From IMG/VR virus record IMGVR_UViG_3300048850_000048, positions 1-30,113 of that record: a stretch of 30,113 nt of DNA; one strand, written 5' to 3'. Position numbers and translations under genes: made by a program. This document shows, one piece after another, positions 2,871 through 29,317 of this stretch. Under the pieces are notes generated by a model. That model worked only from the letters and a program-made list of their open reading frames with translations. It was not told the origin of the DNA and made no database searches. This stretch comes from a virus (Duplodnaviria > Caudoviricetes). Positions within the stretch are counted from its first letter, which is position 1. Every line of letters begins with the position of its first letter.

Positions 2871-3523
2871 GGCCGTTGCGCGTTCTCGTTGGCTGCGAGA
2901 CATCTGGCCGTGTTCGCAGAGCGTTCCTCGATCGTGGGCATGATGCATGGTCCTGCGACTTGCTGCCGGCCGACGATCGCAGCAATCGGCATATCGTTGG
3001 CGATATCCGCGATCTGCTCGGTGACGGATGGGATTTGCTGGCTGTCATGCATCCGCCGTGCACGCGCCTCTGCAATTCCGGCGTTCGCTGGCTCAAGGTG
3101 CCGCCCCCGAGGCGCACGCGCGAGGAAATGTGGGCGGAGCTCGATGCCGGAGCGGCGCTCTTCTCCGATTGCTGGAATGCGCCGATCCCGCGCGTTGCCG
3201 TCGAAAACCCGGTGATGCACCGCTATGCAAAAGAGCGGATCCGCAATTATCAGCCGCCAGCGCAGACCGTGCAGCCGTGGTGGTTTGGCGATCGCGCCTT
3301 CAAGGCGACGTCGTTCTATCTGCGGGAGTTGCCAAAGCTCGTCGCAACGAACCGTCTGACGCCGCCGAAGCCTGGGACGGAAGAGCGCAAGCAATGGTCT
3401 GCGGTGCATCGCGCCTCACCGGGCAAGGATCGTTGGAAAATCCGTTCGATGACATACCCGGGTATCGCCGAGGCGATGGCGGATCAGTGGGGCGGCTATG
3501 CAATGCAGGAGGTGGCGGCGTGA
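2867..3523 (+). CDS. Short phage DNA cytosine methyltransferase-like protein
   Basis: 218 aa from ATG 2867 (ATGA overlap, GGAGG SD). Motif I-like RVLVGCETSG, catalytic motif IV-like HPPCT, motif VI-like VENPV, and QPWWFG..K.T. Confidence 0.65.
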   Translation: MRPLRVLVGCETSGRVRRAFLDRGHDAWSCDLLPADDRSNRHIVGDIRDLLGDGWDLLAVMHPPCTRLCNSGVRWLKVPPPRRTREEMWAELDAGAALFSDCWNAPIPRVAVENPVMHRYAKERIRNYQPPAQTVQPWWFGDRAFKATSFYLRELPKLVATNRLTPPKPGTEERKQWSAVHRASPGKDRWKIRSMTYPGIAEAMADQWGGYAMQEVAA

Positions 3524-4773
3524 GCCAGGAAGCTACGATCCGCCGTGGGGTGCGCAATGCGCGCTATGCGGCGATACCTAACCATGTTTTCGAAGACGAT
3601 CGGCTTTCGATGGAGGCGCGGTGGCTGTTGAGCTACCTGCTTTCCAAGCCGGACAACTGGACCGTTGTGATCGGCGACATCATCAAAAGAGGCAATTGCG
3701 GGCGTGACAAGGCCCGCAAAATGATCGCCGAGCTGGTCGAGGTTGGCTATGCGGAGCGAGAACAGCAGCGCGAGGACGGCAAATTCGGATCATCCGTCCT
3801 CGTAATCTTCGATGAGCCGCGCGCCTTTCCAGCCGCTGAAAACACCCGAGAAACGGGAGGTGTTGCAATTCTACCGCAGACGGATTTACCGGCGACGGCA
3901 TTACCGGCGCCGGATTCACCGTCGCCGGTAAAACCGGCACATAGTAATAACTCAGATCTAGCAAATACTGATGATCAGAATCTGAGAGAGGGCGGGCGCG
4001 AGGCTTCGGAAGATGGGCAGGAGCCGGAAGATCCGAGGAAGATCGACGCTGCCTTCTGGGCGCTGGTGAAGGACTGGCCCGGTTTCGCGGGCATGCCGAA
4101 AGAGCCAGCGCGGCGTGCCTGGTTCGCTCTGACGGCAGAAGAACGACGGGAAGCGGCCGAGCGGTTCCCTCGTTGGCTGCAGCTCCTGAAGGCTCAGAAG
4201 AAATCTCACACGCCGGCGCCATCGACCTATTTCGGGGAAAAGCTCTGGCTGGACGTGCCGGCGCAGGATGAGGCTGCGAAGCCGTCTAATGCAATGGCGG
4301 CGCCGTTCGGCAAGCTCTGGTCGGCGACGAGGATCTCGGAACTGCTGCTGCCGCCAACCGGCATCATCGCTCCACCAACGCAGTTCCAGCTATCCCTCAT
4401 CAGACAGGGAAAGACGACGCTCGCCGAGGTTCGGGCGGAACAGCGCATGCGTTGCGGCTGGCCAGCGGTCAACACGATGCACGAACGGGCGCGGGAACGT
4501 CAGGGGTGGCTCTGCCCTCTGGCGCTTGAGGGAGTGGCACAGTTCTTCCAGCAGGTGCACCGCGACGGCGATCAGCTTGCGGCATGGCGGAGAGAACATA
4601 AGCGCCGCGGCTGGCCGTTCCCAGAAGGCAAGCTGCCTGATTGGTCCTACTTCCCGCCGGTCGAAGGTGAGGGCGATTTCGACCTCCTCGTCGCCGAAGC
4701 CGTCGAGCGCTTCCGAGACCAGATATCCGACTATCTCTCAAACAGGAGCAAGGGCGATGATCATGCAGCGTAG
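3520..4773 (+). CDS. Phage replication initiator (N-terminal winged HTH, lambda O-like position)
   Basis: 417 aa from GTG 3520 (GTGA overlap, GGAGG SD). 'YAAIPNHVFEDDRLSMEARWLLSYLLSKPDNW...ELVEVGY' matches phage Rep N-termini. Internal iterons, then an FW..WP...K..A..AW / YF.EK.W domain. Confidence 0.75.
   Translation: MSQEATIRRGVRNARYAAIPNHVFEDDRLSMEARWLLSYLLSKPDNWTVVIGDIIKRGNCGRDKARKMIAELVEVGYAEREQQREDGKFGSSVLVIFDEPRAFPAAENTRETGGVAILPQTDLPATALPAPDSPSPVKPAHSNNSDLANTDDQNLREGGREASEDGQEPEDPRKIDAAFWALVKDWPGFAGMPKEPARRAWFALTAEERREAAERFPRWLQLLKAQKKSHTPAPSTYFGEKLWLDVPAQDEAAKPSNAMAAPFGKLWSATRISELLLPPTGIIAPPTQFQLSLIRQGKTTLAEVRAEQRMRCGWPAVNTMHERARERQGWLCPLALEGVAQFFQQVHRDGDQLAAWRREHKRRGWPFPEGKLPDWSYFPPVEGEGDFDLLVAEAVERFRDQISDYLSNRSKGDDHAA
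3871..3990. repeat. Putative replication origin: 15-bp tandem iterons plus AT-rich tract
   Basis: CTACCGCAGACGGAT / TTACCGGCGACGGCA / TTACCGGCGCCGGAT / TCACCGTCGCCGGTA / AAACCGGCA at exact 15-bp spacing (3871-3939), followed by AT-rich ATAGTAATAACTCAGATCTAGCAAATACT. Confidence 0.7.
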
Positions 4774-5416
4774 CACGTTTACCGGAAGCCCTATCGCGCT
4801 GCACGGCCATGATCGCTTCGACGATCGGATGCGGCGAATCACTGACGGACTGCTCGACGAGGGCGCACTCGTCACGACGAATTGCCGAATCAACGGCGGA
4901 AAAGCACCGTGGTTTGCTCTTCGGGTCTGGACCGGCCGTGAGAGAGATGTGGAAAAAGCGCTAGATGCGATGGGCATTAAGTCGCTTGTGCCGATGCGAA
5001 AAGGGCCGGATCATCGCCGTCGTGGTCGTGTGATAGAGGGTGCGATGATGCCCGTGATCCACGGTTATGTGCTTGTCCAGATGATTGCCCGTGCGGAATA
5101 TCTGGGGGGCTTGCAGGGCGTCGAACATGTGATTGGCGTGCTCGGAGGGTGCGATCGCCCGATGCGCCTGAGCGACAAGGAAATAAGCAGATTCAATGCT
5201 CTGGCTAGGAATGGTGATTACGATTGGGAACGTCCCGTCACCTTGGCGGTGAAGGCTGGAGAGCCGGTCTCGATCACGGCAGGACCGTTCTGCGATCGGA
5301 AGGCAACTGTCGTCACGCCAAGCCGGAATGGCCGTGGTGATGTGGTGGTATCGATCGACTTCATGGGTGGTCAGGTTCCGGTGACGGTGCCTCTTGCTCT
5401 TCTCAGAAAGTTGTGA
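4757..5416 (+). CDS. NusG-family transcription antitermination protein (phage paralogue)
   Basis: NGN domain WFALRVWTGRE..V...L...G..S.VP...P.IHGYVLV...V.GVLG and KOW motif GEPVSITAGPF...ATV. Start at ATG 4757 or 4763. Confidence 0.85.
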   Translation: MIMQRSTFTGSPIALHGHDRFDDRMRRITDGLLDEGALVTTNCRINGGKAPWFALRVWTGRERDVEKALDAMGIKSLVPMRKGPDHRRRGRVIEGAMMPVIHGYVLVQMIARAEYLGGLQGVEHVIGVLGGCDRPMRLSDKEISRFNALARNGDYDWERPVTLAVKAGEPVSITAGPFCDRKATVVTPSRNGRGDVVVSIDFMGGQVPVTVPLALLRKL

Positions 5417-5418
5417 GA

Positions 5419-5583
5419 GTCATTCTGCCACTGGATGAGCTGATGATCCTGCAGTGAGCCTCTGAGAACGCCTAACCAGCGGGGAGCAATCCCGAGGTCG
5501 GTACACCGGTCAGCCCCAGCCCTGAGAGCTTCGAAAGCAGAGGCACCGATTCAGGGCAAGTGCGAAAGCTATGACCAGATGAC
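5419..5583 (+). ncRNA. Candidate structured leader RNA with crossing helices
   Basis: Multiple complementary segments (listed in findings) and GCAA/GAAA-type loops. No ORF. Lies between the NusG paralogue and a terminator. Confidence 0.55.
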
Positions 5584-5584
5584 A

Positions 5585-5607
5585 GGCGGCCGAGAGGTCG
5601 CCTTTTT
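5585..5607 (+). terminator. Intrinsic terminator gating the late operon
   Basis: GGCGGCC-GAGA-GGTCGCC followed by TTTTT, 12 nt before the HNH start. Confidence 0.8.
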
Positions 5608-5619
5608 CGTTTAAAGGAT

Positions 5620-5982
5620 ATGGGCAGGCTCTCGACCATCAAGCCAAGGATTGCGACGCTAGCACCGAAGATTGGTCGTGCGCCTGGTGATGAGAAGGCT
5701 CGCCTTCGTGAGCGTGATCAGCAGGTGGGCTGGCGCAGCTGGTACAAGACGGCACGTTGGCAAAAGCTGCGCATGTCCGTGCTCATCCGCGATCGCTTCA
5801 CTTGCCAGATGATCGGATGCGGTCGCATCCAGCCGAACACCTCGTTGCTGGTCGCCGATCACAAGCTCCAGCATCACGGCGACGAGGCGCTGTTCTGGGA
5901 TGAGAACAATCTCCAGTGCCTCTGCAAGGCCTGCCACGACAAGCTGAAGCAGAAGCAGGAGCGGGCGCAGGCGCGCTGGTGA
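5620..5982 (+). CDS. HNH endonuclease (terminase-associated, HK97 gp74-like)
   Basis: RDRFTCQMIGC...VADHK..H.GDEALFWDENNLQCLCKACHD. AAGGA SD. Upstream of terS. Confidence 0.9.
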   Translation: MGRLSTIKPRIATLAPKIGRAPGDEKARLRERDQQVGWRSWYKTARWQKLRMSVLIRDRFTCQMIGCGRIQPNTSLLVADHKLQHHGDEALFWDENNLQCLCKACHDKLKQKQERAQARW

Positions 5983-6285: not shown

Positions 6286-6295
6286 GGCCCGCAAG

Positions 6296-6369
6296 GGAGG
6301 GGGGTGGGGCAAAAGTCTGCAAGCCCCTGCCTCCTAGACCCGCGCCCCCCTCACTCAGGGATTTTTTTT
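6296..6369. other. Candidate cos/packaging site region
   Basis: G-rich run (GGAGGGGGGTGGGGC), then AAAAGTC, CCCGCGCCCCCC and a T8 run, immediately upstream of terS. This is the usual location and composition of cos in HNH-associated terminase phages. The exact cut site cannot be determined. Confidence 0.45.
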
Positions 6370-6861
6370 GTGAAGACTGAGAATTTCGACCTATTCGGGA
6401 ATCCGTGGGTTGATCGGCCGACCAAGAGAGGACGGCCTCCCCATGAGGTATCAGCCAGAAACCGCAACAGAGTCAGTATGTTGGTTGCGCTGGGTTGGGC
6501 GAACCCACGCATTGCATCCGCCCTCGGCATCACTTTGCCCACGTTGCACAAATATTATTTTTACGAGCTTCGCCAGCGGGAGGTTGCCCGCGATCGGCTG
6601 GAGGTTCGTCGGATGGAGTTGGCCTGGGAGCTTGCCGAGAAAGGAAATATTGGCGCCTTCAAGGAATTTGGCAAGCTGCTTGACCGCAACGATCGCATGG
6701 AGATCGAGCGGGAACTTGGCTCCGATACCAAACCGGACGAGAAAGCCACGGCGACGGAACGCGTCGGGAAAAAAGCCCTGGATGCGCGGCGCGCGCTCGA
6801 TGCCGACGCTGATCTGATGGCCGAGCTGGAGCAGGAAGCTTCACAGAATGCTCGACACTGA
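6370..6861 (+). CDS. terS: Terminase small subunit
   Basis: GRPPH motif and HTH (WANPRIASALGITLPTLHKYY). Overlaps terL. Start uncertain (GTG 6370 or GTG 6304). Confidence 0.7.
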   Translation: MKTENFDLFGNPWVDRPTKRGRPPHEVSARNRNRVSMLVALGWANPRIASALGITLPTLHKYYFYELRQREVARDRLEVRRMELAWELAEKGNIGAFKEFGKLLDRNDRMEIERELGSDTKPDEKATATERVGKKALDARRALDADADLMAELEQEASQNARH

Positions 6862-8548
6862 TGATCTTCCCCGTTTCGCTTGCCCAGATTGGTGGGAAAA
6901 GCTGCAAGCCGGCGACACGCCTATGGCCGACGTCCCCCTGAACAGGCAGCGGTCAGCGAAAGCCTTGGCATTCTTCAATCGGCTAAGGCTGCCCGACGTT
7001 CCCGGAAATCCGCCTCTGTCCGAGGCTTGCGGGGATTGGTTTCGGGACATCCTATGTGCGTTCCTCGCAAGCGAAGACCCAGAAACGCAGCGCCGCCTGG
7101 TTTGGGAACTTCTCTGCATGGTGCCGAAGAAGAACTCCAAGACGACATATGTCGCTGCACTCGGCTTGACGGCGCTATTCATGGAGGAAGCGCCAAAGAG
7201 ACAGATGCTTATTGTGGCGCCCAGCCAGAACATTTCCGAGCGCTGCTTTGAGCAGGCACAGGGGATGATCCGGATCGATCCGAAGCTGAGCGAAGTCTTC
7301 AGGATACAGGATCACCTAAAGTGCATCACGCGCACGAAGACCGGCACGAAGCTCAATGTGAAGACCTTCGACACGTCGATCGTCACCGGCGAAATTCCGG
7401 TCCTGACCATCATCGACGAGCTGCACGAACTAGGGAAGAACGCCAAAGCGACGCGCGTGATGCAGCAGATCCGTGGTGGCGGCATCACGAAGCAGCGCGG
7501 CCAGGTTCTGATGATCACGACCCAGTCGGACGAGCGTCCGGCGGGGATCTGGGAAGTGGAGTTGAAAAAAGCCCGCGCCATCCGAGACGGCAAAGGCGGC
7601 GCGGCGCCGATCATGCTCCCGGTTCTCTACGAGTTTCCCCATGAGAAGCAGCTCGATCAGGACTATTGGCGCGACCAGAAGAACTGGTCGTACCTGCTGC
7701 CAAATCTCGGTCGTTCCATAGACCCGCAGGCCCTCGTCGACGACTACGAGAATAACGGCAAGGTCAGCAAGGAAGCCGAACAGGTCTGGACGAGCCAGCA
7801 TCTGAATATCGAGATTGGTGTAGGCCTCGGCGGAGACTCCTGGTCGGGTGCACTGCATTGGTCCAACTGCATCGATGACAGCCTAAACGGCCTCGATGAT
7901 CTCCTGGCGCGCTCCGAGGTGTGCACCATCGGCATAGACTGGGGCGGGGCCGACGACCTTGCGGCGCTCTATGTCATTGGTCGGGAAAAGAAAACCAAGC
8001 GTTGGCTTGGATGGGGAAAGGCGTGGGCCCGTCCGTCTGTCTTCGAGCAGAGGAAGAGTATCGCGCCTCGGCTTCGCCAGTTCGAGCAAGATCGCGACTT
8101 GATTATCTCCGCGACCGGTGAAGAGCAGGCGGCCTCGTGCGCGGCGATTTGCAAACGCGTGGCGGATACGGGTCTGCTTCCAGAAGCAGGTGGGATTGGC
8201 CTCGATGTTGCAGGCGTTGCCCTTCTCTTGGACGCGCTGGAGGAGGAACGGCTCGAGCAGCCGATGGTGCAGGCTGTCGCTCAAGGGTGGAAGCTGCAGT
8301 CGGCCATATCCTCTGTGCCTCTCAAGCTGGAAGATCGGCGGTTTCTTCATGGTGATCAGCCAATCATGGCCTGGTGTGTCGGAAACGCAAAACAGACACT
8401 TAGGGGGAGCAATTACGTCGTGACGAAGGAAGTTTCGGGCGCGGCGAAGATTGACCTCCTGATGGCGCTATTCAATGCGGCAATGCTGATGTTTCTGAAC
8501 CCGGAAGCGAAGCGAGAGCCTGCCTACCAGATGCTGGTTTACGGCTAG
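6848..8548 (+). CDS. terL: Terminase large subunit
   Basis: Walker A variant VPKKNSKT, Walker B IIDELH, coupling motif ITT, nuclease motifs GIDWGGADDL and KID.LMA. Confidence 0.92.
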   Translation: MLDTDDLPRFACPDWWEKLQAGDTPMADVPLNRQRSAKALAFFNRLRLPDVPGNPPLSEACGDWFRDILCAFLASEDPETQRRLVWELLCMVPKKNSKTTYVAALGLTALFMEEAPKRQMLIVAPSQNISERCFEQAQGMIRIDPKLSEVFRIQDHLKCITRTKTGTKLNVKTFDTSIVTGEIPVLTIIDELHELGKNAKATRVMQQIRGGGITKQRGQVLMITTQSDERPAGIWEVELKKARAIRDGKGGAAPIMLPVLYEFPHEKQLDQDYWRDQKNWSYLLPNLGRSIDPQALVDDYENNGKVSKEAEQVWTSQHLNIEIGVGLGGDSWSGALHWSNCIDDSLNGLDDLLARSEVCTIGIDWGGADDLAALYVIGREKKTKRWLGWGKAWARPSVFEQRKSIAPRLRQFEQDRDLIISATGEEQAASCAAICKRVADTGLLPEAGGIGLDVAGVALLLDALEEERLEQPMVQAVAQGWKLQSAISSVPLKLEDRRFLHGDQPIMAWCVGNAKQTLRGSNYVVTKEVSGAAKIDLLMALFNAAMLMFLNPEAKREPAYQMLVYG

Positions 8549-8561
8549 AGGAACCACAAAC

Positions 8562-10529
8562 ATGAACAGGATGTATTCAATCCTGACCGTGAAAGCGGTC
8601 GAGGAGGATGAGCGCGTTATTCGCGGTGTTGCCACGACGCCGAACCCCGATCGCGTCGGGGATATCGTGGAGCCGCTCGGCGTGCGGTTCAAAAACCCGA
8701 TGCCGCTCCTGCATCAGCACGATCACGATAAGCCAGTCGGTACGGTCACGTTCGACCGTCCCACCAAGGATGGGATCACCTTCGAAGCAAAGCTGCCGAA
8801 AATCGACGAGCCTGGCCCGTTGCGCGATCGCGTCGAGACGGCTTGGGGCGAAGTGAAGGCCGGCTTGGTCCGTGCCGTCTCCATCGGCTTCCGGGCTATG
8901 GAATACGCCTTTCTCGACAGCGGAGGCATCCGGTTCACCGAAACAGAAGTACTCGAACTCTCGCTTGTCAGCGTCCCGGCCAATGCGGACGCTGTCATTT
9001 CCACCATCAAGTCGATTGACCGCCCTCTGCTCGCCGCGTCTGGCAAGGAACCTAAGGCGGATGACCGGCCTGTCCCTCCCGGCGCTGCGGGAAAATCCAA
9101 GCACTCAGTCAATCTCAACATCAAGGAAAACCCAGCTATGAAGACCATTGCTGAACAGATCGCGGCGCTGGAAGCCTCCCGTCAGGCAAAGGCCGCGCGC
9201 ATGGCCGAAGTCATGCAGAAGTCCATGGATGAAGGCCGCTCGACCGACCAGGCCGAACAGGAAGAGTTCGACACCCTCGAGCAAGAGGTCGAGGCCATCG
9301 ACGGTGACCTGAAGCGTCTCCGCGCTCTTGAAAAGGCTCAGGCCTTGAACGCCAAGCCGGTTATCCCCGGCGCCATAAAGTCGGCTGCGGCTGGCACTTC
9401 CATTCGTACCGGCACTGTCCCGCTGAAGGCTGAACCGGCGAAGGGCATCCGCTTTGCCCGCTACGCCAAGTGCCTTGCGATCGCACACAAAACGCACCAG
9501 CCGGTGGTCAATATCGCCGAAGGCCTTTACGGCAAGAGCGATCCGGATCTTGTCGACATCGTCAAGGCGGCCGTCTCTGCTATGACGACCGGCAACACTC
9601 CCGCGCTGGTCGGTAATGAGGGAGGTTTTGCCGACTTCGTCGAATTTTTGCGGCCGATGACGATTCTCGGACGCTTCGGTGCCGGGAACATCCCGTCCCT
9701 GACGCAGATCCCGTTCCGAATTCCCTTCATTTCGGAAACCTCGGAAACCGATGCGCAATGGGTGGGTGAAGGCAAGGGCAAGCCGCTAACCCGGTTCACT
9801 CTCGATCGAGGAGAGTTGACCCCGCTCAAGATTGCAACGATCGCAGTCCAGACGATGGAGCTTATCCGCGACAGCTCGCCATCTTCAGACGTCCTGCTCC
9901 GCAACTCCCTCGCAAAAGCTGTTGCCAAGCGTTCGGACGTTTCATTCATCGATCCGACCTCGGCGGGCGTTGCCGGCGTCCGGCCACCATCGATTCTCAA
10001 TGGTGTCACGCCCATCGTGAACAGCGCGGCAACCGGGGCCGATGGCGTTCGCGAAGACGTCCAGGCCATCATTGGCGCCTTCGTAGCGGCGAACAACCCG
10101 CTGACGTCGGGCGTGTGGGTCATGGGCGGTACTTATGCGCTCCGACTAATGATGATGCTGAACCCGCTCGGCCAGCGGGAATTCCCTGGCATCACGATGC
10201 AGGGCGGTACGTTCTTCGAGCTGCCGGTAATCGTTTCCAATTACTTGGGTGACTATGTCGCGCTGGTGAATGCCGAGGACATCTACCTGGGCGATGAAGG
10301 CGGCGTCGACATCGCCATGTCTACGGAGGCCTCGCTGGAGATGGTGGACAACCCGACGCAGGACTCCGGTGCTGCAGATCCTGTGGAGACGACAGTCGTG
10401 TCCATGTTCCAGACCAATAGCGTGGCGTTCCGTGCCGAACGGACAATTAACTGGGCTCGCCGTCGTGCGAGTGCCGTCGCCTGGATGGATAACATCACCT
10501 GGGGCGACCCGGTACCGGCTACACCCTAA
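8562..10529 (+). CDS. Fused HK97-type prohead protease and major capsid protein
   Basis: Protease motifs DRVGDIVEP.G, LLHQHDH..PVG, SIGF, ELSLVSVPAN. Capsid motifs AQWVGEGKGKP and MFQTNSVAFRAE..INW. Internal AAGGA SD with an in-frame ATG at 9138. Confidence 0.92.
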   Translation: MNRMYSILTVKAVEEDERVIRGVATTPNPDRVGDIVEPLGVRFKNPMPLLHQHDHDKPVGTVTFDRPTKDGITFEAKLPKIDEPGPLRDRVETAWGEVKAGLVRAVSIGFRAMEYAFLDSGGIRFTETEVLELSLVSVPANADAVISTIKSIDRPLLAASGKEPKADDRPVPPGAAGKSKHSVNLNIKENPAMKTIAEQIAALEASRQAKAARMAEVMQKSMDEGRSTDQAEQEEFDTLEQEVEAIDGDLKRLRALEKAQALNAKPVIPGAIKSAAAGTSIRTGTVPLKAEPAKGIRFARYAKCLAIAHKTHQPVVNIAEGLYGKSDPDLVDIVKAAVSAMTTGNTPALVGNEGGFADFVEFLRPMTILGRFGAGNIPSLTQIPFRIPFISETSETDAQWVGEGKGKPLTRFTLDRGELTPLKIATIAVQTMELIRDSSPSSDVLLRNSLAKAVAKRSDVSFIDPTSAGVAGVRPPSILNGVTPIVNSAATGADGVREDVQAIIGAFVAANNPLTSGVWVMGGTYALRLMMMLNPLGQREFPGITMQGGTFFELPVIVSNYLGDYVALVNAEDIYLGDEGGVDIAMSTEASLEMVDNPTQDSGAADPVETTVVSMFQTNSVAFRAERTINWARRRASAVAWMDNITWGDPVPATP

Positions 10530-10548
10530 TCCCGTCCCGCATTTGTCT

Positions 10549-10577
10549 GCCGGTCCCATTTTGTGGGGCCGGCCTTT
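10549..10577 (+). terminator. Hairpin after the capsid gene (weak terminator or mRNA stabiliser)
   Basis: GCCGGTCCCA-TTTTG-TGGGGCCGGC followed by CTTT. Confidence 0.5.
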
Positions 10578-10593
10578 AACAAGGAGAGGCGAC

Positions 10594-10833
10594 ATGAAGA
10601 AATCTTCCTACATGACTCGAGCCATGAAGGCGCACGATCCGCGTTACGCTTCCATCCTTTCTAAGCTCGGATATGCGCGGGCTGACAGCGTTTCTGCTGC
10701 GGAAAAAGAGACCGTGGAGGCAGATGGCCTTACAGAACTGCGCAAAATGTACCAGGAGCTGGTCGGCAAACGTGCGTTCAACGGATGGGATGCTGAAACC
10801 CTTACTCAGAAGATCACCGAAGCGAAGGTTTGA
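10594..10833 (+). CDS. Small head-region protein
   Basis: 79 aa from ATG 10594 with AAGGAG SD. C-terminal 'LRKMYQELVGKRAFNGWDAETL..KI' small helical domain. Confidence 0.7.
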   Translation: MKKSSYMTRAMKAHDPRYASILSKLGYARADSVSAAEKETVEADGLTELRKMYQELVGKRAFNGWDAETLTQKITEAKV

Positions 10834-10838
10834 TCAAA

Positions 10839-12182
10839 ATGCGCTTCTTCGGTCTGAGCATAAGCCGCGCCAAGGCGACCAGCGAAAAAGGGATGTCGCC
10901 CGTCAGCCAAGGGCGCGGCGGCTGGTGGCGTATCCTTGAGTCATATGCCGGTGCCTGGCAACAGAACGTAGAAGTCCGCTACGACTCCGTCCTTTCCAAT
11001 CACGCCGACTTCGCTTGTCGCACTCTGATTGCATCAGACATTGCGAAGCTGCGCATCAAGCTGATGGCGAAAGACAGCGACGGCATCTGGAGCGAGACCA
11101 GCAACTCGGCTTACTCGCCCGTCCTGCGCAAGCCGAACCATTACCAGAACCGGATCCAGTTCATGGAGAGCTGGGTTCTCTCGAAGCTTCAGCGCGGCAA
11201 TGCCGTGATCCTAAAGCAGAGAGACGGCAGGGGCGTCGTGCAGCGCCTATATGTCCTCGACTGGGCGAATGTGACGCCGCTCGTATCCGATGACGGCAGT
11301 GTGTTCTACCAGCTGAATACGGATAGTCTCTCTGGCTTGCCAGAATCGGTAACAGTGCCCGCTCGAGAGGTCATACACGACCGATTCAACTGCTTCTTTC
11401 ATCCACTCGTCGGACTTTCGCCCATCTTTGCCGGCGGCCTTGCCGCCATGCAGGGTCTCGCGATCCAGAACGACAGCACACAGTTCTTTCGGAATGGTGC
11501 TCAGCCAGGAGGCGTGCTGACGGCGCCGGGAGCAATATCCGATGAAACGGCGAAGCGCCTCAAAGATTACTGGGATAACAATTTCTCCGGAAAGAATGCC
11601 GGAAAGGTCGCCGTTCTCGGAGATAATCTCAAATATGAGGCGATGCGGGCGAAGGCGGTCGACTCTCAACTTATCGAACAGCTGAAGTGGACTGCTGAGG
11701 TCGTCTGCTCAACCTACCACGTTCCGCCTTACAAGATCGGCGTAGGCGCCATGCCGAGCCACAATAATATCCAGTCCCTCAATGTCGAATACTATTCCCA
11801 GTGCCTTCAGGTGCTGCTGGAATCGATCGAGCTTTGCCTGGATGAGGGCCTTGGTATGGGTGAGAACATCGGGACAGAGTTCGACACCGACAATCTCCTG
11901 CGCATGGACAGCGTCACTCAGATGGAAGTGCTGGACAAGTCCAAAGGGATTATGAGCCCGAACGAGCAGCGCAAGAAACTCGAGCTGAAGCCAAAGACCG
12001 GGGGAGATAGCCCGATGCTTCAGCAGCAGAACTTCAGCCTGGAAGCGCTCTCTAAGCGGGATGCGCTCGCCGATCCGTTCGGGCCTAGTCCAGGGCCGGC
12101 TGCAGCCGAGCCCGCCAATGATAATGCGACTGAGGCAGAAGCCCGGTCCGCCCTCGTGGAAATTCTCAAAGGACTCCGCTGA
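10839..12182 (+). CDS. Portal protein (HK97 family)
   Basis: LRKPN.YQNRIQF.ESW..SKL..GNA, EVIHDR, GLSPI, FFRNGAQPGGVL, VPPYKIG, MSPNE.R. Start at ATG 10839 (or TTG 10830). Confidence 0.92.
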   Translation: MRFFGLSISRAKATSEKGMSPVSQGRGGWWRILESYAGAWQQNVEVRYDSVLSNHADFACRTLIASDIAKLRIKLMAKDSDGIWSETSNSAYSPVLRKPNHYQNRIQFMESWVLSKLQRGNAVILKQRDGRGVVQRLYVLDWANVTPLVSDDGSVFYQLNTDSLSGLPESVTVPAREVIHDRFNCFFHPLVGLSPIFAGGLAAMQGLAIQNDSTQFFRNGAQPGGVLTAPGAISDETAKRLKDYWDNNFSGKNAGKVAVLGDNLKYEAMRAKAVDSQLIEQLKWTAEVVCSTYHVPPYKIGVGAMPSHNNIQSLNVEYYSQCLQVLLESIELCLDEGLGMGENIGTEFDTDNLLRMDSVTQMEVLDKSKGIMSPNEQRKKLELKPKTGGDSPMLQQQNFSLEALSKRDALADPFGPSPGPAAAEPANDNATEAEARSALVEILKGLR

Positions 12183-24279: not shown

Positions 24280-25197
24280 TCAAAGAAGCTTCGGGTTGAC
24301 CCAGTACTGGCCACCGTCGCGGGAGGTCCACCCTGTGACATCGGGCCGGTCGGCAAAATACTGAAACTTGGTTGGGCGCTCCCGCACGAGTGCCCAGCCG
24401 TTTGCGGCAAAAAGCTCGAGGAGTTGCCCTTCGATCAGACGTGAATGTGTACCTACAAAAAGGCGCCGGACTTTCGAATTAAGCAGCTCGATGGCAGAAG
24501 TCAGAACCGTCGCCTCGACGCCTTGAATGTCAACATGAACGAGGTCGAAGGTCTCTCCGTCAATCACATCGGCGAGCGTGATCGCGGTTACTTCCTCGTT
24601 TTCAACGACACGACCGACATAATCTACTCCGGTGTTCTCCTCGACGGCCTGGCCGCCGTTCTGGCCGAAGTCGGTCACTTTCGGGAAATAGAGAGTGCCT
24701 GGATGAGAGGCGACCGCTGCCTTGATGGTGCGAACCGTCGCCGGATCGACGCCATTGTCAGCCAAATGCTGCGGGATGAGGTCGTACAGCGTTTGGCTGG
24801 CCTCGACGGCGGTGATGTAAGGGGTCAGGCCTCGCCGTGTGGCGTTGACATGTGCCGCACAGCTCCAAGGCGCGTAGGAAGCGCCGATCTCAGCCATTCT
24901 GAAGGCATCGCGGCTGTTGTTGATCGCGTCGAAGAGAACAAAGTATTCGATCGCCTCGGCTCGCAAGGCGTCGTCGGGGATAGGTAAGTCTTTGATCACC
25001 CAACCGTCCATATGCGTTGCCCATGGATGGTATTCCGATCGGGCCTTGATACCCATGAAGTCGGTGATCATCCCAGGCGTGCCTTCGCACTCTTGGTAAA
25101 ACGAGGAAAACAGATCCTTATCGGAGGGCTCCCACCCTCCGAAGAAGTCATCCAGAAGGGCAGCGCGAGAGGAGATGGCGTCATCAGGTCGTGACAT
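24280..25197 (-). CDS. FkbM-family SAM methyltransferase
   Basis: AEIGASYAPW, AVEAS, DLVHVDIQGVE, LFVGTH. GGAACC SD-like sequence upstream. Confidence 0.8.
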   Translation of the reverse strand: MSRPDDAISSRAALLDDFFGGWEPSDKDLFSSFYQECEGTPGMITDFMGIKARSEYHPWATHMDGWVIKDLPIPDDALRAEAIEYFVLFDAINNSRDAFRMAEIGASYAPWSCAAHVNATRRGLTPYITAVEASQTLYDLIPQHLADNGVDPATVRTIKAAVASHPGTLYFPKVTDFGQNGGQAVEENTGVDYVGRVVENEEVTAITLADVIDGETFDLVHVDIQGVEATVLTSAIELLNSKVRRLFVGTHSRLIEGQLLELFAANGWALVRERPTKFQYFADRPDVTGWTSRDGGQYWVNPKLL

Positions 25198-25217
25198 AGA
25201 GGTTCCCGTTATGTTTA

Positions 25218-25997
25218 TCAGACTGATTGGTTGACAAGGTCGAAGACGTCTTCCGCCGTCTTCATCCGAGTGCGCAAGAATGTGAGCGCTTCGTGTGGCT
25301 CGGCCGGAAGCGGAGTGGTGTCGCCGTTGAGCGGGTTTACAACCGCGAGAAGTCCAAGAGTTCTTTTCATCTGAGAAAAATAGTCTCTCGGGTCCATGCC
25401 TATGTGGTTGACTACCGCGTGCTCGTTGAACTCCAAAAATACCGTGGGTCGATGGCGTAGCAGCGTGTTAAATCCACCCTTTAATACAGCCAGTTCGAAG
25501 CCCTCGACGTCTATTTTGATGAAGTCAATCTCGGGGATCTGGTGAAGAGCAACGAAGCCGTCAATGCTTGTCATATTCACACTAATTCCTTGCCCAGACA
25601 AAGAGACATGGTTTGTGTGTGATGTGCTCTTGTCGTCATTGAATTTGACGACACCGGCTTTTTCTCCGACAGCCAAAGGCTGGAGAGATATGTAATTCCA
25701 GTCACCGTTGCGATCGATGTTGGCCTTCAGGTGGCCATAAGTCGTTGGGGAGGGCTCAAAGCCTATTATTTTGCTGGTGGGGCAGAGTTCGGACATCAGG
25801 AGCGTGCTCAGCCCGATGTTTGCCCCGACATCCAGCATGACACCCATGGGCTTCCTCTTCGACAGCCTGAACAGATAGTTCGCTAGGGCGCCTAGGTCGT
25901 GATCTGGCAGGGTGTTGAAATATGCATCTTCGGCTTCGCCTTGGACGTCATAAACCCTCTCATAACCCCTGAATTGTTTGAGCGGATTATCCCCCAT
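25218..25997 (-). CDS. FkbM-family SAM methyltransferase
   Basis: LDVGANIG, FEPSP, IDFIKIDVEGFE..VL.G, P.VFLE. Confidence 0.9.
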   Translation of the reverse strand: MGDNPLKQFRGYERVYDVQGEAEDAYFNTLPDHDLGALANYLFRLSKRKPMGVMLDVGANIGLSTLLMSELCPTSKIIGFEPSPTTYGHLKANIDRNGDWNYISLQPLAVGEKAGVVKFNDDKSTSHTNHVSLSGQGISVNMTSIDGFVALHQIPEIDFIKIDVEGFELAVLKGGFNTLLRHRPTVFLEFNEHAVVNHIGMDPRDYFSQMKRTLGLLAVVNPLNGDTTPLPAEPHEALTFLRTRMKTAEDVFDLVNQSV

Positions 25998-26722
25998 CAG
26001 ATGCCGAGCCTTTGTGCGGTGTTGAACATTCTCTCTTCCGAGGAAGCTAGGACCTTCAGGACTTCACGGCGGCTGCCTCCCTCGGCTAGGTAATGGGTGT
26101 GGTAGGCAATGCCGTTTTCGTCGGGCTCGCGGGTAAGGAAGAATCTGTAGGCGCGTTCAATGAACTGGATGTCAGTCAGGTCTTCCGCAAGGGATAGTTC
26201 CTGCCAGTCCCATTCTTTGGTGGCCTCGGTGCAAATCACCCACCCATCGATGTAGGTGTATTCGCCTGGTTTCAGCCCTGCGGCATTGAGGTAGACATCA
26301 AGGCAGATTTCCGTGAACCCATTGAAATGAAAGTCTCCGGTTTGAGCCTGGTTGCCGAACATCATCTTAAGCCAGTTATAATGGCGGACGAAGTTAGGCT
26401 CCTCTTCCATCTGCTGGGCAAGCTTCAGTGGGTTGCTGGTTTCCAGCCACATCTTCCCGCCTTCTTTCAGAAGAGCGGTCCATTCTAAGAGTGCGCCCAT
26501 CATGTACTGTCGGGGGATGTGCTCAATGATGTTGGCTACCACCGCGTACTCATATTTATTCTTTGGGATAGCGGAAAAGTCATTGTCGGCCAGGACGATA
26601 TCCGGGTTGCAGGACTCATCCATGTCGATATTGAGGTACCCGTGGCGGTAATCGTGGCCACACCCGATGTTCAAATGTGTCGCGCTTTCGAGGAGTTCGC
26701 GCTGCTTCCCAGACAAGTCCAT
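25997..26722 (-). CDS. Class I SAM methyltransferase with C-terminal DUF4214-like domain
   Basis: LNIGCG....GYLNID, IIEH, LK.GG. C-terminal FIERAYRFFL.REPDE.G..Y....L..G.SR..V...L..S.E. TGATG coupling to the next gene. Confidence 0.8.
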   Translation of the reverse strand: MDLSGKQRELLESATHLNIGCGHDYRHGYLNIDMDESCNPDIVLADNDFSAIPKNKYEYAVVANIIEHIPRQYMMGALLEWTALLKEGGKMWLETSNPLKLAQQMEEEPNFVRHYNWLKMMFGNQAQTGDFHFNGFTEICLDVYLNAAGLKPGEYTYIDGWVICTEATKEWDWQELSLAEDLTDIQFIERAYRFFLTREPDENGIAYHTHYLAEGGSRREVLKVLASSEERMFNTAQRLGI

Positions 26723-26755
26723 GCGTTGTTCCCAGCAAGAGTTTTGAGGGCGCAG

Positions 26756-26783
26756 AACCTACACATCGCCGCTGATTAGTCCA
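26756..26783 (-). promoter_or_regulatory. Putative sigma70-type promoter for the three-methyltransferase operon
   Basis: On the - strand: TGGACT-N16-TAGGTT, 33 nt upstream of the ATG. A similar motif recurs at 29375-29405. Confidence 0.45.
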
Positions 26784-26841
26784 GATCGAATCTAGCACCC
26801 CGCCCTCGTGTGGAATTTTTTCTTTCCAGCGAAGGTGACAC

Positions 26842-26910
26842 ATGGCTCGCGAAACTCTTCCCGTCGTCTTTCGACTCATGTTCGGGGATGAGGGCGGCTA
26901 TTCGAATCGC
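26842..26910 (+). pseudogene. 5' stub of a GH108-type endolysin
   Basis: AAGGTG SD then MARETLPVVFRLMFGDEGGYSNR, containing the GH108 EGGY motif. The expected D.GG.T..GI continuation is absent and the ORF runs into unrelated sequence. Confidence 0.65.
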
Positions 26911-27037
26911 AACGCGAGCCCGTACAGCGGTTGCTCGCTTACACGCAGCCGAGCGTGGGAGAATTCATCGCGGAGCTGCCGGTATTCGAGCGGCCCAGGT
27001 ATGGATGTGCGGCATAGCGGAGGGGTCGACGGGCGGA

Positions 27038-29317
27038 TTATCTCGACACGTTGACCCACGCTGGTACCTCACAGGCCTGACTAGCCACGAAGTGGCCTTC
27101 GAATTCCAAGAAGCCGAGGGTTTTAAACCAGCTGTGACAGGTGAAATTCTTGCCTGTGTCGATGATCCGACCAGTGGCCCTCTCTGCTTGGCTCAGCGCG
27201 ATCTCTGTGGCGACTGCCCCCATAGCTACTTCCGCTCCGAGGCCAAACACGCGACAAGAGAGTACCGCTTGAACGATCTCGCCGTCCTTCACTAAGACTG
27301 CACCGGTGATGCCGTTGTCGCCCGTCTTGTCCTTAAGGGAGGACAGCAGACAAACACCTCCGGCGATGAGGAAGTCCTTGAATTCGAGTAGTTCCCATCT
27401 CTTGCCGGTAGTGTTGAACTGGTTGGTCTTGTTGATGAGTTCGAAGCCGCGCTCAAATCGTGGTTTGTCATCGATGTCCATGATGAATAGCCGTTGTTCG
27501 ATCTGAAGCGAACTCAGCCAGTCCTCGCGAGACATCCGGCGCTCCATCTCGAGACGCTCGACGCGGGCTTGGACCATTTCCGTGCGCCTCGCTGACTCCT
27601 CGGTGATTTGGCCGACCCTTGTTTCAGGCGCCTGTAGAATAATGCGGCGCCAGTCATAATGATTTTCATTCAGGAAGCGCATATCGGGGAAGCGCGCCCG
27701 CACTTCGTCTATCTCACGCGGGTTGTCGTCGATGAAGAGTGTGTTCTGTGGGAGGATGTTTGTTTCCTGCAAAATCTCGGCAATGTTTTCTGATTTCGGA
27801 TTCCAATTGATCTTCATGGACGCGAAGTCTTCTGCAGTGATAGCTCCCTGCCAAATCATCTTCAGCCGCTCTAGCGTGGGGTCCTGATCATTCTTACTGG
27901 CTACAGCGAGCAATCCGCCGCGTGACTTGAAATACGTCAACGCCTCGATGAAACCGATTGGCCAACCTTCGGTCCGCTCCCAAAGCGGTCGATCTTCCTC
28001 AGCTGCGACGCCACGCCAAAGCGTGTCGTCAAGATCAACGATAATGAGCTTGATAGGCGTTTCGGCGCGCAGAATCGCTAGGTCGGTCTTGATCTTGTTG
28101 AGGAAGGCTTCCCCGTAGAGGCCCCTGAACGCGTCGATCTGCCAGACTTCCGCGGGCTGCCGAGAAGGGGCAACCCTCTCCTCATCAGCAACGCGCTGAT
28201 ATCCCTCAATGTTGCCAATAAACGCATTGTGGGTTGCGTGAGTTAGAATGTCGTCCTGGAAATGCATCCGACCAACGAAGTTTACAATTTCATTCGTGTC
28301 TACATAGATGAGATTGTCGTGTGATCTCATCAATTCACGCATGGTGTGGTTTAGTTTTCTGATGAACTCTTTGTAGGTGACGCGATCATTTGGCCGAACC
28401 GTTCCCATGTAATCGAAGGAGGGTTCAAAAAAATCAGGTATGAACAAAGGGACGCGTTGGCTGATTAACGATAGGCTCGACAGCTTGTTAGAGATGAGTT
28501 CGGCACAGTTTTGTACTAAGCTTTCTAGCTCCTGATCGCTCCGGAGGCGCGCCACCGCCATGTCGGCGGCAGTTAAAGGCAGTCCCGTTGCGTCGGCCAG
28601 CAGGTGCCTGAGTGTCAGGAAAAATACAGCAGCGTCAAACCCGTCCGTCGCGAGAGCGGGCAACTCATCATGACGGTGCGAAGTGGCCAACTGATGTTGC
28701 AATTGCAAGCCAAGGCTGCGCCCCGTCTGCACAAGCGGGCCCACACCACAAGTGCCAAGCAACAGCAACCGCGGAGGAACTTCCGAAAAGGAAAGGGACT
28801 GCGGCTGATCTGGAAGTCTCACGCGCGGGGCCAAGTCGTGGCGCGTCGCGTAGAGGTTCCTGAATTCGTCACTGCGAAGTAGGTTGTCGATCCACCAGCG
28901 GACACTTTCCCTCCTATCCATGCCATGCTTGAAAGCGTCGTTTCCGACGGGACGGTTTAGGATTGCCCGAAAAAGAAACTCGATTGTGGACGCAGAGGCT
29001 GGAAGGTCTGCAAACGGCACATTCTCGCTGTTGCTGCGATGATTGGAGAGGGAAAGAAAGCGAGAAATGAAGCTCCGAGGGTTCGCCTTTGCGCGCAATA
29101 GCACCGACGCTCTTTTGAGTCTTTCCTGCAGCTGACGCTTTTCCAGGCGGTATTGGCGAATCTTATGCCTAGCCTCTTCAAGTTCGCTGGTCAGCGCGAT
29201 GATGCGAGTTTCGTATTCGGTGCTTGTTTCATTCCGAACCACCATGATCGGACGTTCAGGTTCAACCGGATGCTCAACTTTCGTCTCTTCAAAGTCCGTT
29301 AGCGTCATCTCGATCAC
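27038..29317 (-). CDS. FkbH-like HAD-IIIC protein with N-terminal coiled coil and DUF4214-like segment
   Basis: HAD motif IVDLDDTLWRG, ASKND, INW.PK, LFIDDNP.E, C-terminal KTNQFN, D..GD.G, LSCRV.G. Start at GTG 29317 or ATG 29308. Confidence 0.88.
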   Translation of the reverse strand: MIEMTLTDFEETKVEHPVEPERPIMVVRNETSTEYETRIIALTSELEEARHKIRQYRLEKRQLQERLKRASVLLRAKANPRSFISRFLSLSNHRSNSENVPFADLPASASTIEFLFRAILNRPVGNDAFKHGMDRRESVRWWIDNLLRSDEFRNLYATRHDLAPRVRLPDQPQSLSFSEVPPRLLLLGTCGVGPLVQTGRSLGLQLQHQLATSHRHDELPALATDGFDAAVFFLTLRHLLADATGLPLTAADMAVARLRSDQELESLVQNCAELISNKLSSLSLISQRVPLFIPDFFEPSFDYMGTVRPNDRVTYKEFIRKLNHTMRELMRSHDNLIYVDTNEIVNFVGRMHFQDDILTHATHNAFIGNIEGYQRVADEERVAPSRQPAEVWQIDAFRGLYGEAFLNKIKTDLAILRAETPIKLIIVDLDDTLWRGVAAEEDRPLWERTEGWPIGFIEALTYFKSRGGLLAVASKNDQDPTLERLKMIWQGAITAEDFASMKINWNPKSENIAEILQETNILPQNTLFIDDNPREIDEVRARFPDMRFLNENHYDWRRIILQAPETRVGQITEESARRTEMVQARVERLEMERRMSREDWLSSLQIEQRLFIMDIDDKPRFERGFELINKTNQFNTTGKRWELLEFKDFLIAGGVCLLSSLKDKTGDNGITGAVLVKDGEIVQAVLSCRVFGLGAEVAMGAVATEIALSQAERATGRIIDTGKNFTCHSWFKTLGFLEFEGHFVASQACEVPAWVNVSR

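Follow-up and report, generated by a model that had tools for sequence, protein, structure and literature searches.

The window studied here is a 30-kb stretch of viral DNA (30,113 nucleotides, positions 1 to 30,113 of record IMGVR_UViG_3300048850_000048) with genes in a lambdoid order: a CII-like gene, a methyltransferase, a replication initiator, a NusG paralogue, a gap, and then HNH, terminase, head, portal, and tail genes on the plus strand. The replication initiation gene (3028..4773, plus strand; phrog_270, E 3e-59) is in a λ O-like position. It overlaps the start of the gene for the NusG paralogue (4757..5416, plus strand; NGN and KOW domains; PF02357; phrog_6386), which encodes 219 amino acids if its start is at 4757; the start codon is uncertain, and 4763 is a possible alternative. 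The slot of this paralogue is that of Q in λ. No match to the Q family was found among the 15 early and late ORFs scanned, and the slot holds a gene of the NusG fold. Beyond the gap, the first late gene in the window encodes an HNH nuclease (5620..5982, plus strand; phrog_589), which in homologues is swapped for other genes, one alternative being a phrog_1924 minor tail protein. The large terminase gene (6848..8548, plus strand) is followed by head, portal, and tail genes on the same strand up to 24279.

Several features outside the gap were also recorded. The MT-A70 methyltransferase (776-2299) has a weak ParB-like match in its N-terminal part. A tract with a G-run, a C-run, and a T-run (6290-6370) lies ahead of the gene in the small-terminase position and resembles a cos-site region. 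The order at 8562-12182, where a fused protease-capsid gene precedes the portal gene, is unusual. A cargo block on the minus strand, opposed to the late operon (24280-29317), contains two FkbM methyltransferases, a DUF4214 protein, and a HAD-like protein, which suggests surface-polysaccharide modification.

Fold of the intergenic RNA

The initial annotation had described the gap as ORF-free and dense in complementarity, with one strand able to pair with three upstream segments in crossing order as a pseudoknot or switch. No ORF of 60 or more amino acids lies inside the gap, and the segments listed were all present at their coordinates and complementary. The density itself was at the level of chance: the z-score of the minimum free energy (MFE) was −1.17 for 5410-5620 and 0.04 for 5430-5575, and the sequence has 10, 2, and 2 Watson-Crick stems of five, six, and at least seven pairs, where 150 shuffles averaged 10.5, 2.9, and 0.8. 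Because the single sequence does not show more structure than chance, the case for an RNA rests on conservation and covariation in its homologues. At least 182 distinct elements of 117–180 nt were collected, with membership defined by a paralogue directly upstream, in the λ Q slot; an anchored parse took 176 of the 182, and six were dropped. Alignment A1 consists of 64 close homologues collected by protein and by 5′ motifs.

In A1, 94.7% of the cells of a nested fold were paired, a total lowered by the inclusion of one misplaced pair (helix 10), and 10 pairs had two-sided changes; slid controls reached 47% at most. RNAalifold and the single-sequence MFE gave nearly the same nested fold. The fold begins with a 5′ module (5433..5517, plus strand) made of a GG-AYGA anchor (5433-38), P1 (GG/CC, 5433-34/5516-17), and P2 (GCTGA 5439-43/TCAGC 5510-14), which together close a variable domain. 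P2, the helix with the best support across the family, was missing from the list in the initial annotation. It had 92% of its cells paired in 176 elements, with many compensatory strand pairs; for its 48 distinct strand combinations, 77.5% were paired, compared with a mean of 55.8% and a maximum of 65.8% when shuffled. Within A1 it is nearly invariant, and its covariation appears across subtypes.

The variable inner domain of subtype A (5444..5509, plus strand) contains CC/GG (5448-49/5508-09), GUG/CAC (5454-56/5504-06), GCCUC/GAGGU (5458-62/5494-98), and two hairpins (5469-81 and 5482-93). Its helices were 98.8–100% paired in A1, with two-sided changes in the two hairpins only, so that the remaining helices within 5448-5509, being almost invariant, fit the fold without proving it. 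In subtypes B–G this domain is swapped for other folds. Downstream of it (5519..5557, plus strand), the P3 stem (5519-25/5551-57) carries an apical hairpin, P3b (5528-32/5540-44), and a conserved internal-loop strand, RYCGAY (5545-50). P3 was 93.9% paired, one of its pairs having 18 C-G to U-A changes (61 sequences), and P3b had two-sided changes at all five pairs (61 sequences). The highest-ranking covarying columns that can pair were pairs of the nested fold, with two exceptions. One of them, 5470-5547, has a column in common with a stronger nested pair. The other joins the first base of the 3′ loop (5564) to a position two bases after the ATG (5575); it could pair in 151 of 182 elements (G-C in 98, T-G in 36), and the covariation was not significant when counted in independent pairs on the tree (5.8 vs. 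0.7, median p 0.125).

Two helices named in the initial annotation are part of the nested fold: GCCCTGA/TCAGGGC was 94.8% paired and GGGA/TCCC 98.8% paired, both with two-sided changes (A1, n = 64). Four others broke in many homologues in A1, and the crossing or switch model was dropped for them: GCCTCTG/CAGAGGC was 84.6% paired, with one pair broken in 24 of 64; CACTG/CAGTG was 80.3% paired; GCTT/AAGC was 55.1% paired; and GGTCA/TGACC, of which four of the five pairs (GTCA/TGAC) fall inside A1, was 89.5% paired with zero two-sided changes. The pairs of GC-GAAA-GC were invariant across A1 and are therefore uninformative on covariation. GTCGGT/ACCGAT was 95.5% paired in A1, by one-sided (wobble) changes only; its full complement was present in 51 of 65 elements of the window's subtype (A), compared with 1 of 38 elements of subtypes B, C, and D, and it may form at most one 4-bp loop-loop contact in subtype A. 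In the proposed GTCAT/ATGAC stem, GTCAT falls within the predicted −10 box and outside the predicted transcript. The two near-direct repeats that had been noted were not kept as repeats in homologues, the second usually being GCCCTGACA. Thus the search for covariation yielded a conserved fold with compensatory changes and left most of the crossing helices unsupported: the covarying structure is nested. We conclude that the late operon is preceded by a non-coding RNA leader whose structure is conserved, and not by a pseudoknotted switch. K-turn, σ54, and hammerhead readings, judged by eye against the alignments, were also dropped. In the elements of subtype G (L186, L229, L259, L311, L319, L510, and L520), an extra hairpin is present between the predicted start and the GG anchor.

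Just behind P3 lies a 3′ module, AGU-GC-NNNN-GC-UAUG (5558..5573, plus strand), which has an ops-like outline and is a candidate pause or loading site. It is (nearly) invariant in A1 and conserved as sequence, without covariation; its columns in loci found by pattern were fixed by the search pattern, so that A1 and the model matches form the independent test of this conservation. This module is not universal, since four NusG-linked leaders (L470–L473) keep the 5′ module with a different 3′ end. Of 182 loops in the 3′ module, 110 are GNRA and 63 YACH, and the class flips in both directions among near-identical proteins, with 19 changes on the tree. Such free flipping is RNA-tetraloop-like and makes direct reading of the bases, as in ops, unlikely; base-specific reading of ops type was rejected because of the 19 changes. 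Relative to a Y/G pause, the GC-NNNN-GC hairpin would be shifted by one position from the register of ops. No GGTA loop, as in the ops word, was found among 182 loops. The ops site is 5′-GCGGTAGC and opsX is 5′-YGCGNAGCR (PMC11685472). P3 ends 14–16 nt ahead of the possible pause points, inside the range given in that paper for opsX hairpins.

A copy of the 5′ anchor word, GAYGA (5578..5582, plus strand), follows the 3′ module and, with the invariant ATG, creates a 3-codon mini-ORF in the window (5571-5582). GAYGA was found at most 25 nt behind the 3′ module in 111 of 181 homologues, compared with 12.8 when shuffled. The invariant ATG opens a peptide of at most four amino acids in 96 of 181 homologues, and 29 had no stop in the range read. 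This second GAYGA or mini-ORF could be a second protein-binding word or could serve to load ribosomes.

Promoter, terminator, and transcription

A weak σ70-type promoter is predicted in the 3′ end of nusG, with a start near 5430. Its −35 box, TTGCTC (5394..5399, plus strand), would lie within the last nusG codons and its weak −10 box, AGTCAT (5418..5423, plus strand), 18 nt beyond it, with A5430 as the predicted start. In all 176 parsed elements, a TTG was found 17, 20, or 23 nt before the nusG stop (12–26 nt upstream was searched), and in 162 of the 176 it was 36–41 nt before the GG anchor; the exceptions are ten elements with an additional 5′ hairpin and four in which this distance is shorter. 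In the family profile, 18 bases past the hexamer, the TATAAT base is the first or second choice at each position, and the predicted −1 and +1 positions are C (0.75) and A (0.58). A simple σ70 consensus scan of the window did not call this promoter.

The intrinsic terminator that the initial annotation had placed directly behind the element is present (5584..5613, plus strand), with a hairpin at 5584-5603 and a U-tract, and is tR′-like. A terminator-like hairpin was found at most 107 nt behind the element in 157 of 179 homologues, compared with 2 when shuffled. Few further terminators were seen in the late region, with five other plus-strand matches and the total at the level of chance, and this speaks against antitermination. 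In some loci (L029/L034/L035, L003/L038, and L050) the element is intact and other DNA after the 3′ module replaces or displaces the usual terminator; these are possible insertion hot spots or decayed prophages. At one of 20 loci scanned (L012), a tRNA-Met(CAT) gene (3297-3373) lies between the element and the terminator-like hairpin, and its position directly behind the element fits a transcribed leader.

In two isolate RNA libraries from one study, contigs were found that match homologue L028 without a difference across the element (3179-3410 and 3145-3394) and over parts of the next genes. These contigs extend 40–55 nt past the terminator, and one begins upstream of the predicted start. Late-gene contigs were present in the same libraries, at a depth of ~11, and DNA carry-over may be the source of the L028-identical contigs. 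Because they give no strand, ends, or level, they are a weak hint of transcription. Libraries X2 and X3 had no contig over the L028 nusG, and missing cover proves nothing; X1 and X4, mixed samples with small shares, were left out.

The NusG paralogue and the distribution of the element

The AlphaFold model of the paralogue had a pLDDT of 91.8, and its best PDB folds were NusG and RfaH. It scored below the NusG equivalog cut-off (42.1 vs. 135.7); together with PF02357 and the fold, this places it in the specialized class of NusG paralogues (NGN plus KOW) apart from host NusG. All three hosts checked hold a second, weaker-scoring NusG match. An extra N-terminal helix is predicted with confidence in the model at residues 21–45 (4817..4891, plus strand), as part of an extension of 39–66 amino acids that contains 13.4% Arg, compared with 8.2% in the body (55 proteins); host NusG has 1–12 residues at this position (24 loci). 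The helix is a candidate RNA contact.

A search with the NusG protein gave 51 loci, 50 of which had the full element directly behind the stop codon, the remaining one being cut by a contig end. The RNA could be recognized base for base even where the protein was only 35–45% identical. Scanning with a pattern for the 3′ part gave at least 120 viral matches. A paralogue was directly upstream in 116 of the 120 listed; one of the other four was a coding chance match, and three were near locus ends. When species genomes were scanned with the pattern, 60 of the 120 matches listed had a paralogue upstream, and all of those with a named genus belonged to the Rhizobiaceae, Brucellaceae, or Phyllobacteriaceae; 58 of the 120 look like chance, and two (L377 and L383), although their flanks are short, are apparently true elements. 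The covariance model R2, which covers the 3′ part, had strong matches in 13 of 151 genomes of the family and in 1 of 151 genomes of the order, the latter being the center genome itself. The paralogue was upstream at all 16 strong places and at none of 20 weak ones, and 28 host-nusG loci gave no match. Among the matches listed, the element was not found outside the Rhizobiaceae and close kin in the genomes searched. With the 5′-module pattern, 3 of the 120 matches listed were NusG-linked, all of the same family. Protein searches started from L319 and L473 gave no useful relatives, and the matches listed from a profile search of 301 genomes were mostly host nusG.

On the NusG tree (FastTree, 108 tips), there were 9 changes of RNA subtype and 30 of the first late gene, compared with about 48–49 for shuffled labels; both sets of labels were assigned by rules of our own, and the first-gene calls include some wrong frames. 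The difference between 9 and 30 changes indicates that nusG, the promoter, and the RNA travel as one module behind which late genes are exchanged. Co-inheritance would also be expected from physical overlap alone, because the promoter is inside nusG. Over the same family the protein diverges to about 20–35% identity, while the RNA frame stays constant.

The module is carried by the cultured phages phi2LM21, phi3LM21, vB_RleM_PPF1, Rivra, and vB_MseS-P1, which have only part of the window's element in common; this partial sharing exposes a constant frame around a replaceable inner domain. An annotated gene for a 50-amino-acid hypothetical protein lies over the element of PPF1 (L158, 1957-2109) and is probably a false call. 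The leaders that keep the 5′ module (GG-ACGA-P2...CCC) with a different 3′ end (L470–L472, after 2034, and L473, after 1884) suggest a wider, older family; L470 and L471 carry GC-GAA-GC, and L473 is phage vB_MweS-yong2 (OM681334). L473 and L161 (PP395642) are phages with recorded cyanobacterial hosts, yet they carry the rhizobial module. In L161 the subtype-A element is complete, and the NusG shares 54% identity with that of the window. The host labels of both phages may be wrong.

Scanning with Rfam 15 gave no matches in the window at the gathering threshold (best E 5.1, minus strand), and a scan of 12 homologous loci of other subtypes gave one tRNA and nothing else. The Rhizobiales-1 motif, described as a single hairpin with the consensus GAAAAGUGG...GUUUUCC and hundreds of copies (Weinberg 2010, PMC2864571), was rejected: its alignment rows differ, and the element is single-copy in the window. 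A catalogue by Fremin 2023 (PMC10690425) lists several 50–99 nt candidates from Sinorhizobium, Agrobacterium, and Ochrobactrum phages, and fragments of this RNA may already be among them, without a function. In the literature searched, with most subscription journals outside its reach, neither this RNA nor late control driven by NusG was described for rhizobial or agrobacterial temperate phages. The structured RNA family is real, has no Rfam entry, and is apparently unnamed.

Possible role in late transcription

The layout resembles that of λ Q and pR′-tR′, in which the replication gene is followed by the gene for the regulator and then, ahead of the virion genes, by a late promoter with a short leader and a terminator. 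Here the terminator is found in 157 of 179 homologues, and the promoter is predicted from conservation only. The λ-Q logic works in Alphaproteobacteria, as described for the Q21-like BrrG of the Bartonella GTA (10.1101/2024.11.20.624540). Both Q and BrrG act by binding to the promoter DNA and depend on a −10-like pause; the window's system instead has a regulator of the NusG fold and a conserved, covarying RNA of 100–165 nt. Bacillus LoaP resembles it in its parts. LoaP needs the dfn/mln leader hairpin to pass the leader terminator and binds the leader RNA (PMC12691694). The window likewise has a NusG paralogue and a leader terminator, and by analogy we propose that its paralogue may bind the leader and cause read-through. 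LoaP uses one small UNCG hairpin and acts on chromosomal antibiotic operons in Bacillota, whereas the window's leader is multi-domain. The window's paralogue scored 51.5 bits against the LoaP cut-off of 125, and differs in the approximately neutral mean charge of its KOW domain and in its extra N-terminal helix.

According to PMC11685472, UpxY is loaded where polymerase pauses behind an RNA hairpin whose end lies at −9 to −16, and the non-template strand has a hairpin, 5′-YGCGNAGCR. In common with UpxY-opsX and RfaH-ops, the window has a paralogue specific to its locus and, following an RNA hairpin, a GC-loop-GC word; in both cases the classes of protein and site cluster together. However, the site of RfaH and UpxY is DNA (12 or about 40 bp), that of UpxY being upstream of its own gene, whereas the window's element is downstream of nusG and, unlike ops and opsX, has a freely varying loop and long-range RNA covariation. 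The scores of the paralogue were 21.7 bits against the RfaH cut-off of 144.5 and 65 bits against the UpxY cut-off of 100. The system appears to follow λ-Q logic with parts of LoaP and UpxY type, and it does not qualify as a member of any of these systems.

In the initial annotation the RNA had been suggested to be an antitermination RNA or a loading site for a NusG paralogue. This part of the proposal remains the best reading, for which the close association of the element with the paralogue, with a predicted promoter, and with a terminator speaks; the pseudoknot or switch that accompanied it is not supported. As judged from sequence and its conservation, the leader is probably a loading site for the paralogue, which would carry RNA polymerase past the terminator into the late genes; we infer from linkage only that the paralogue acts on the late operon through this site. 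In λ, polymerase from pR′ halts at tR′ and a short leader is released. Here, a host σ70-type promoter, predicted from conservation, would start RNA near 5430 in the last nusG codons, and without the paralogue, polymerase would stop at the terminator and release a leader of ~180 nt. The nascent RNA would fold P1-P2 and the inner domain and then P3, a structure given by covariation with a putative role, and a pause of polymerase may occur close to the ops-like 3′ module, directly downstream of P3. The cognate paralogue, as a late product of the replication operon, would attach to the RNA frame, perhaps with its extra Arg-rich helix, and its NGN domain would dock on polymerase in place of host NusG. 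Phage specificity would come from the swappable inner domain. Polymerase modified in this way would read through the terminator and on into ~19 kb of packaging, head, and tail genes. A bolder proposal, which we advance tentatively and with less than even confidence, is that this may be a fourth design of phage late switch, combining an Arg-rich-helix NusG paralogue, a constant frame with an ops-like pause, and the inner domain as a key, in at least seven orthogonal pairs; the terminated leader of the lysogen might double as a decoy that sets an induction threshold.

Other explanations were weighed against a loading site in the RNA. Loading could take place on DNA alone, as with RfaH and UpxY, through the promoter, the ops-like 3′ module, and the upstream duplex, leaving the RNA as a pause hairpin and a stable small RNA, ended by the terminator, that does something else in the lysogen, such as serving as a decoy for the paralogue. 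Conservation of the 3′ module as sequence without covariation is in keeping with this, as are the short contigs over the element in RNA libraries and the finding that UpxY reads upstream DNA and not hairpin RNA (PMC11685472). We consider it rather unlikely, because the 3′ loop bases vary freely, the two strands of P2 covary although about 70 nt apart and are located well upstream of where a pause hairpin would be, and the inner domain tracks the protein tree. The converse explanation is that the RNA alone modifies polymerase, with the paralogue separate or only assisting. HK022 put is such a cis-acting RNA, which antiterminates without a dedicated phage protein. A large conserved frame with adjacent stems, exceeding the single hairpin of LoaP and constant even where the protein is down to about 20–35% identity, would suit an RNA of this kind. 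The element is constantly linked to the paralogue, which argues against the put type: it was found without the paralogue in no locus with full flanks (L377 has a short flank), and all 16 model matches were linked. Moreover, a constitutive RNA antiterminator behind a host-type promoter would give no late timing. To our knowledge, neither put nor EAR travels with a dedicated NusG paralogue, and RF01735 had no match to the window's element. We regard action by the RNA alone as unlikely. The Bacillus EAR (epsC, RF01735) is, like put, a cis-acting structured RNA linked to processive antitermination (EAR: PMC2864571).

An attenuator of riboswitch type, in which a ligand or protein makes the RNA refold to hide the terminator, would be in keeping with the conserved unpaired bases in internal loops, with a terminator just behind, and with the one crossing helix remaining in the window's subtype, GTCGGT/ACCGAT. 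In 157 loci, however, pairing of the terminator arm with its own leader (−9.1 kcal/mol) was hardly better than with a shuffled leader (−8.6 kcal/mol), so that no signal of an antiterminator helix against that arm was obtained. The spacer between element and terminator varies from 4 to 48 nt, the terminator sequences are unlike each other, and the tRNA gene of L012 or about 130 nt of inserted DNA (L003) can lie between the two. The variable spacer and the lack of special leader pairing argue against such a switch, which we judge very unlikely. It is extremely improbable that the element is a self-cleaving RNA or a virion or packaging RNA unrelated to transcription control. This reading draws on a CUGAUGA at 5440-46, a core word of the hammerhead, and on the adjoining HNH and terminase genes. 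The hammerhead ribozyme (CUGANGA...GAAA...UH core, three stems) was rejected, since the word is confined to one subtype, where it lies in a P2 strand, and is not kept across the family, and there was no match to an Rfam ribozyme; in addition, the RNA follows nusG and not the packaging module.

A loading site in the leader RNA is therefore the reading we carry forward. No late-control mechanism has been described in temperate phages of rhizobia and agrobacteria in the literature reached, and a predicted promoter, an RNA, a terminator, and a protein are now defined that can be tested in cultured phages. The system bears on the open question of how a NusG paralogue is directed to a single operon, through DNA as with RfaH and UpxY or through RNA as with LoaP. 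Swap tests can draw on the at least 182 variants found in nature, which fall into at least seven RNA subtypes. The structured RNA family is one that Rfam lacks, and it may supply orthogonal parts for antitermination. From the sequence comparisons, the RNA is likely the cis part of a late switch driven by a NusG paralogue, which would be a new variant of processive antitermination.
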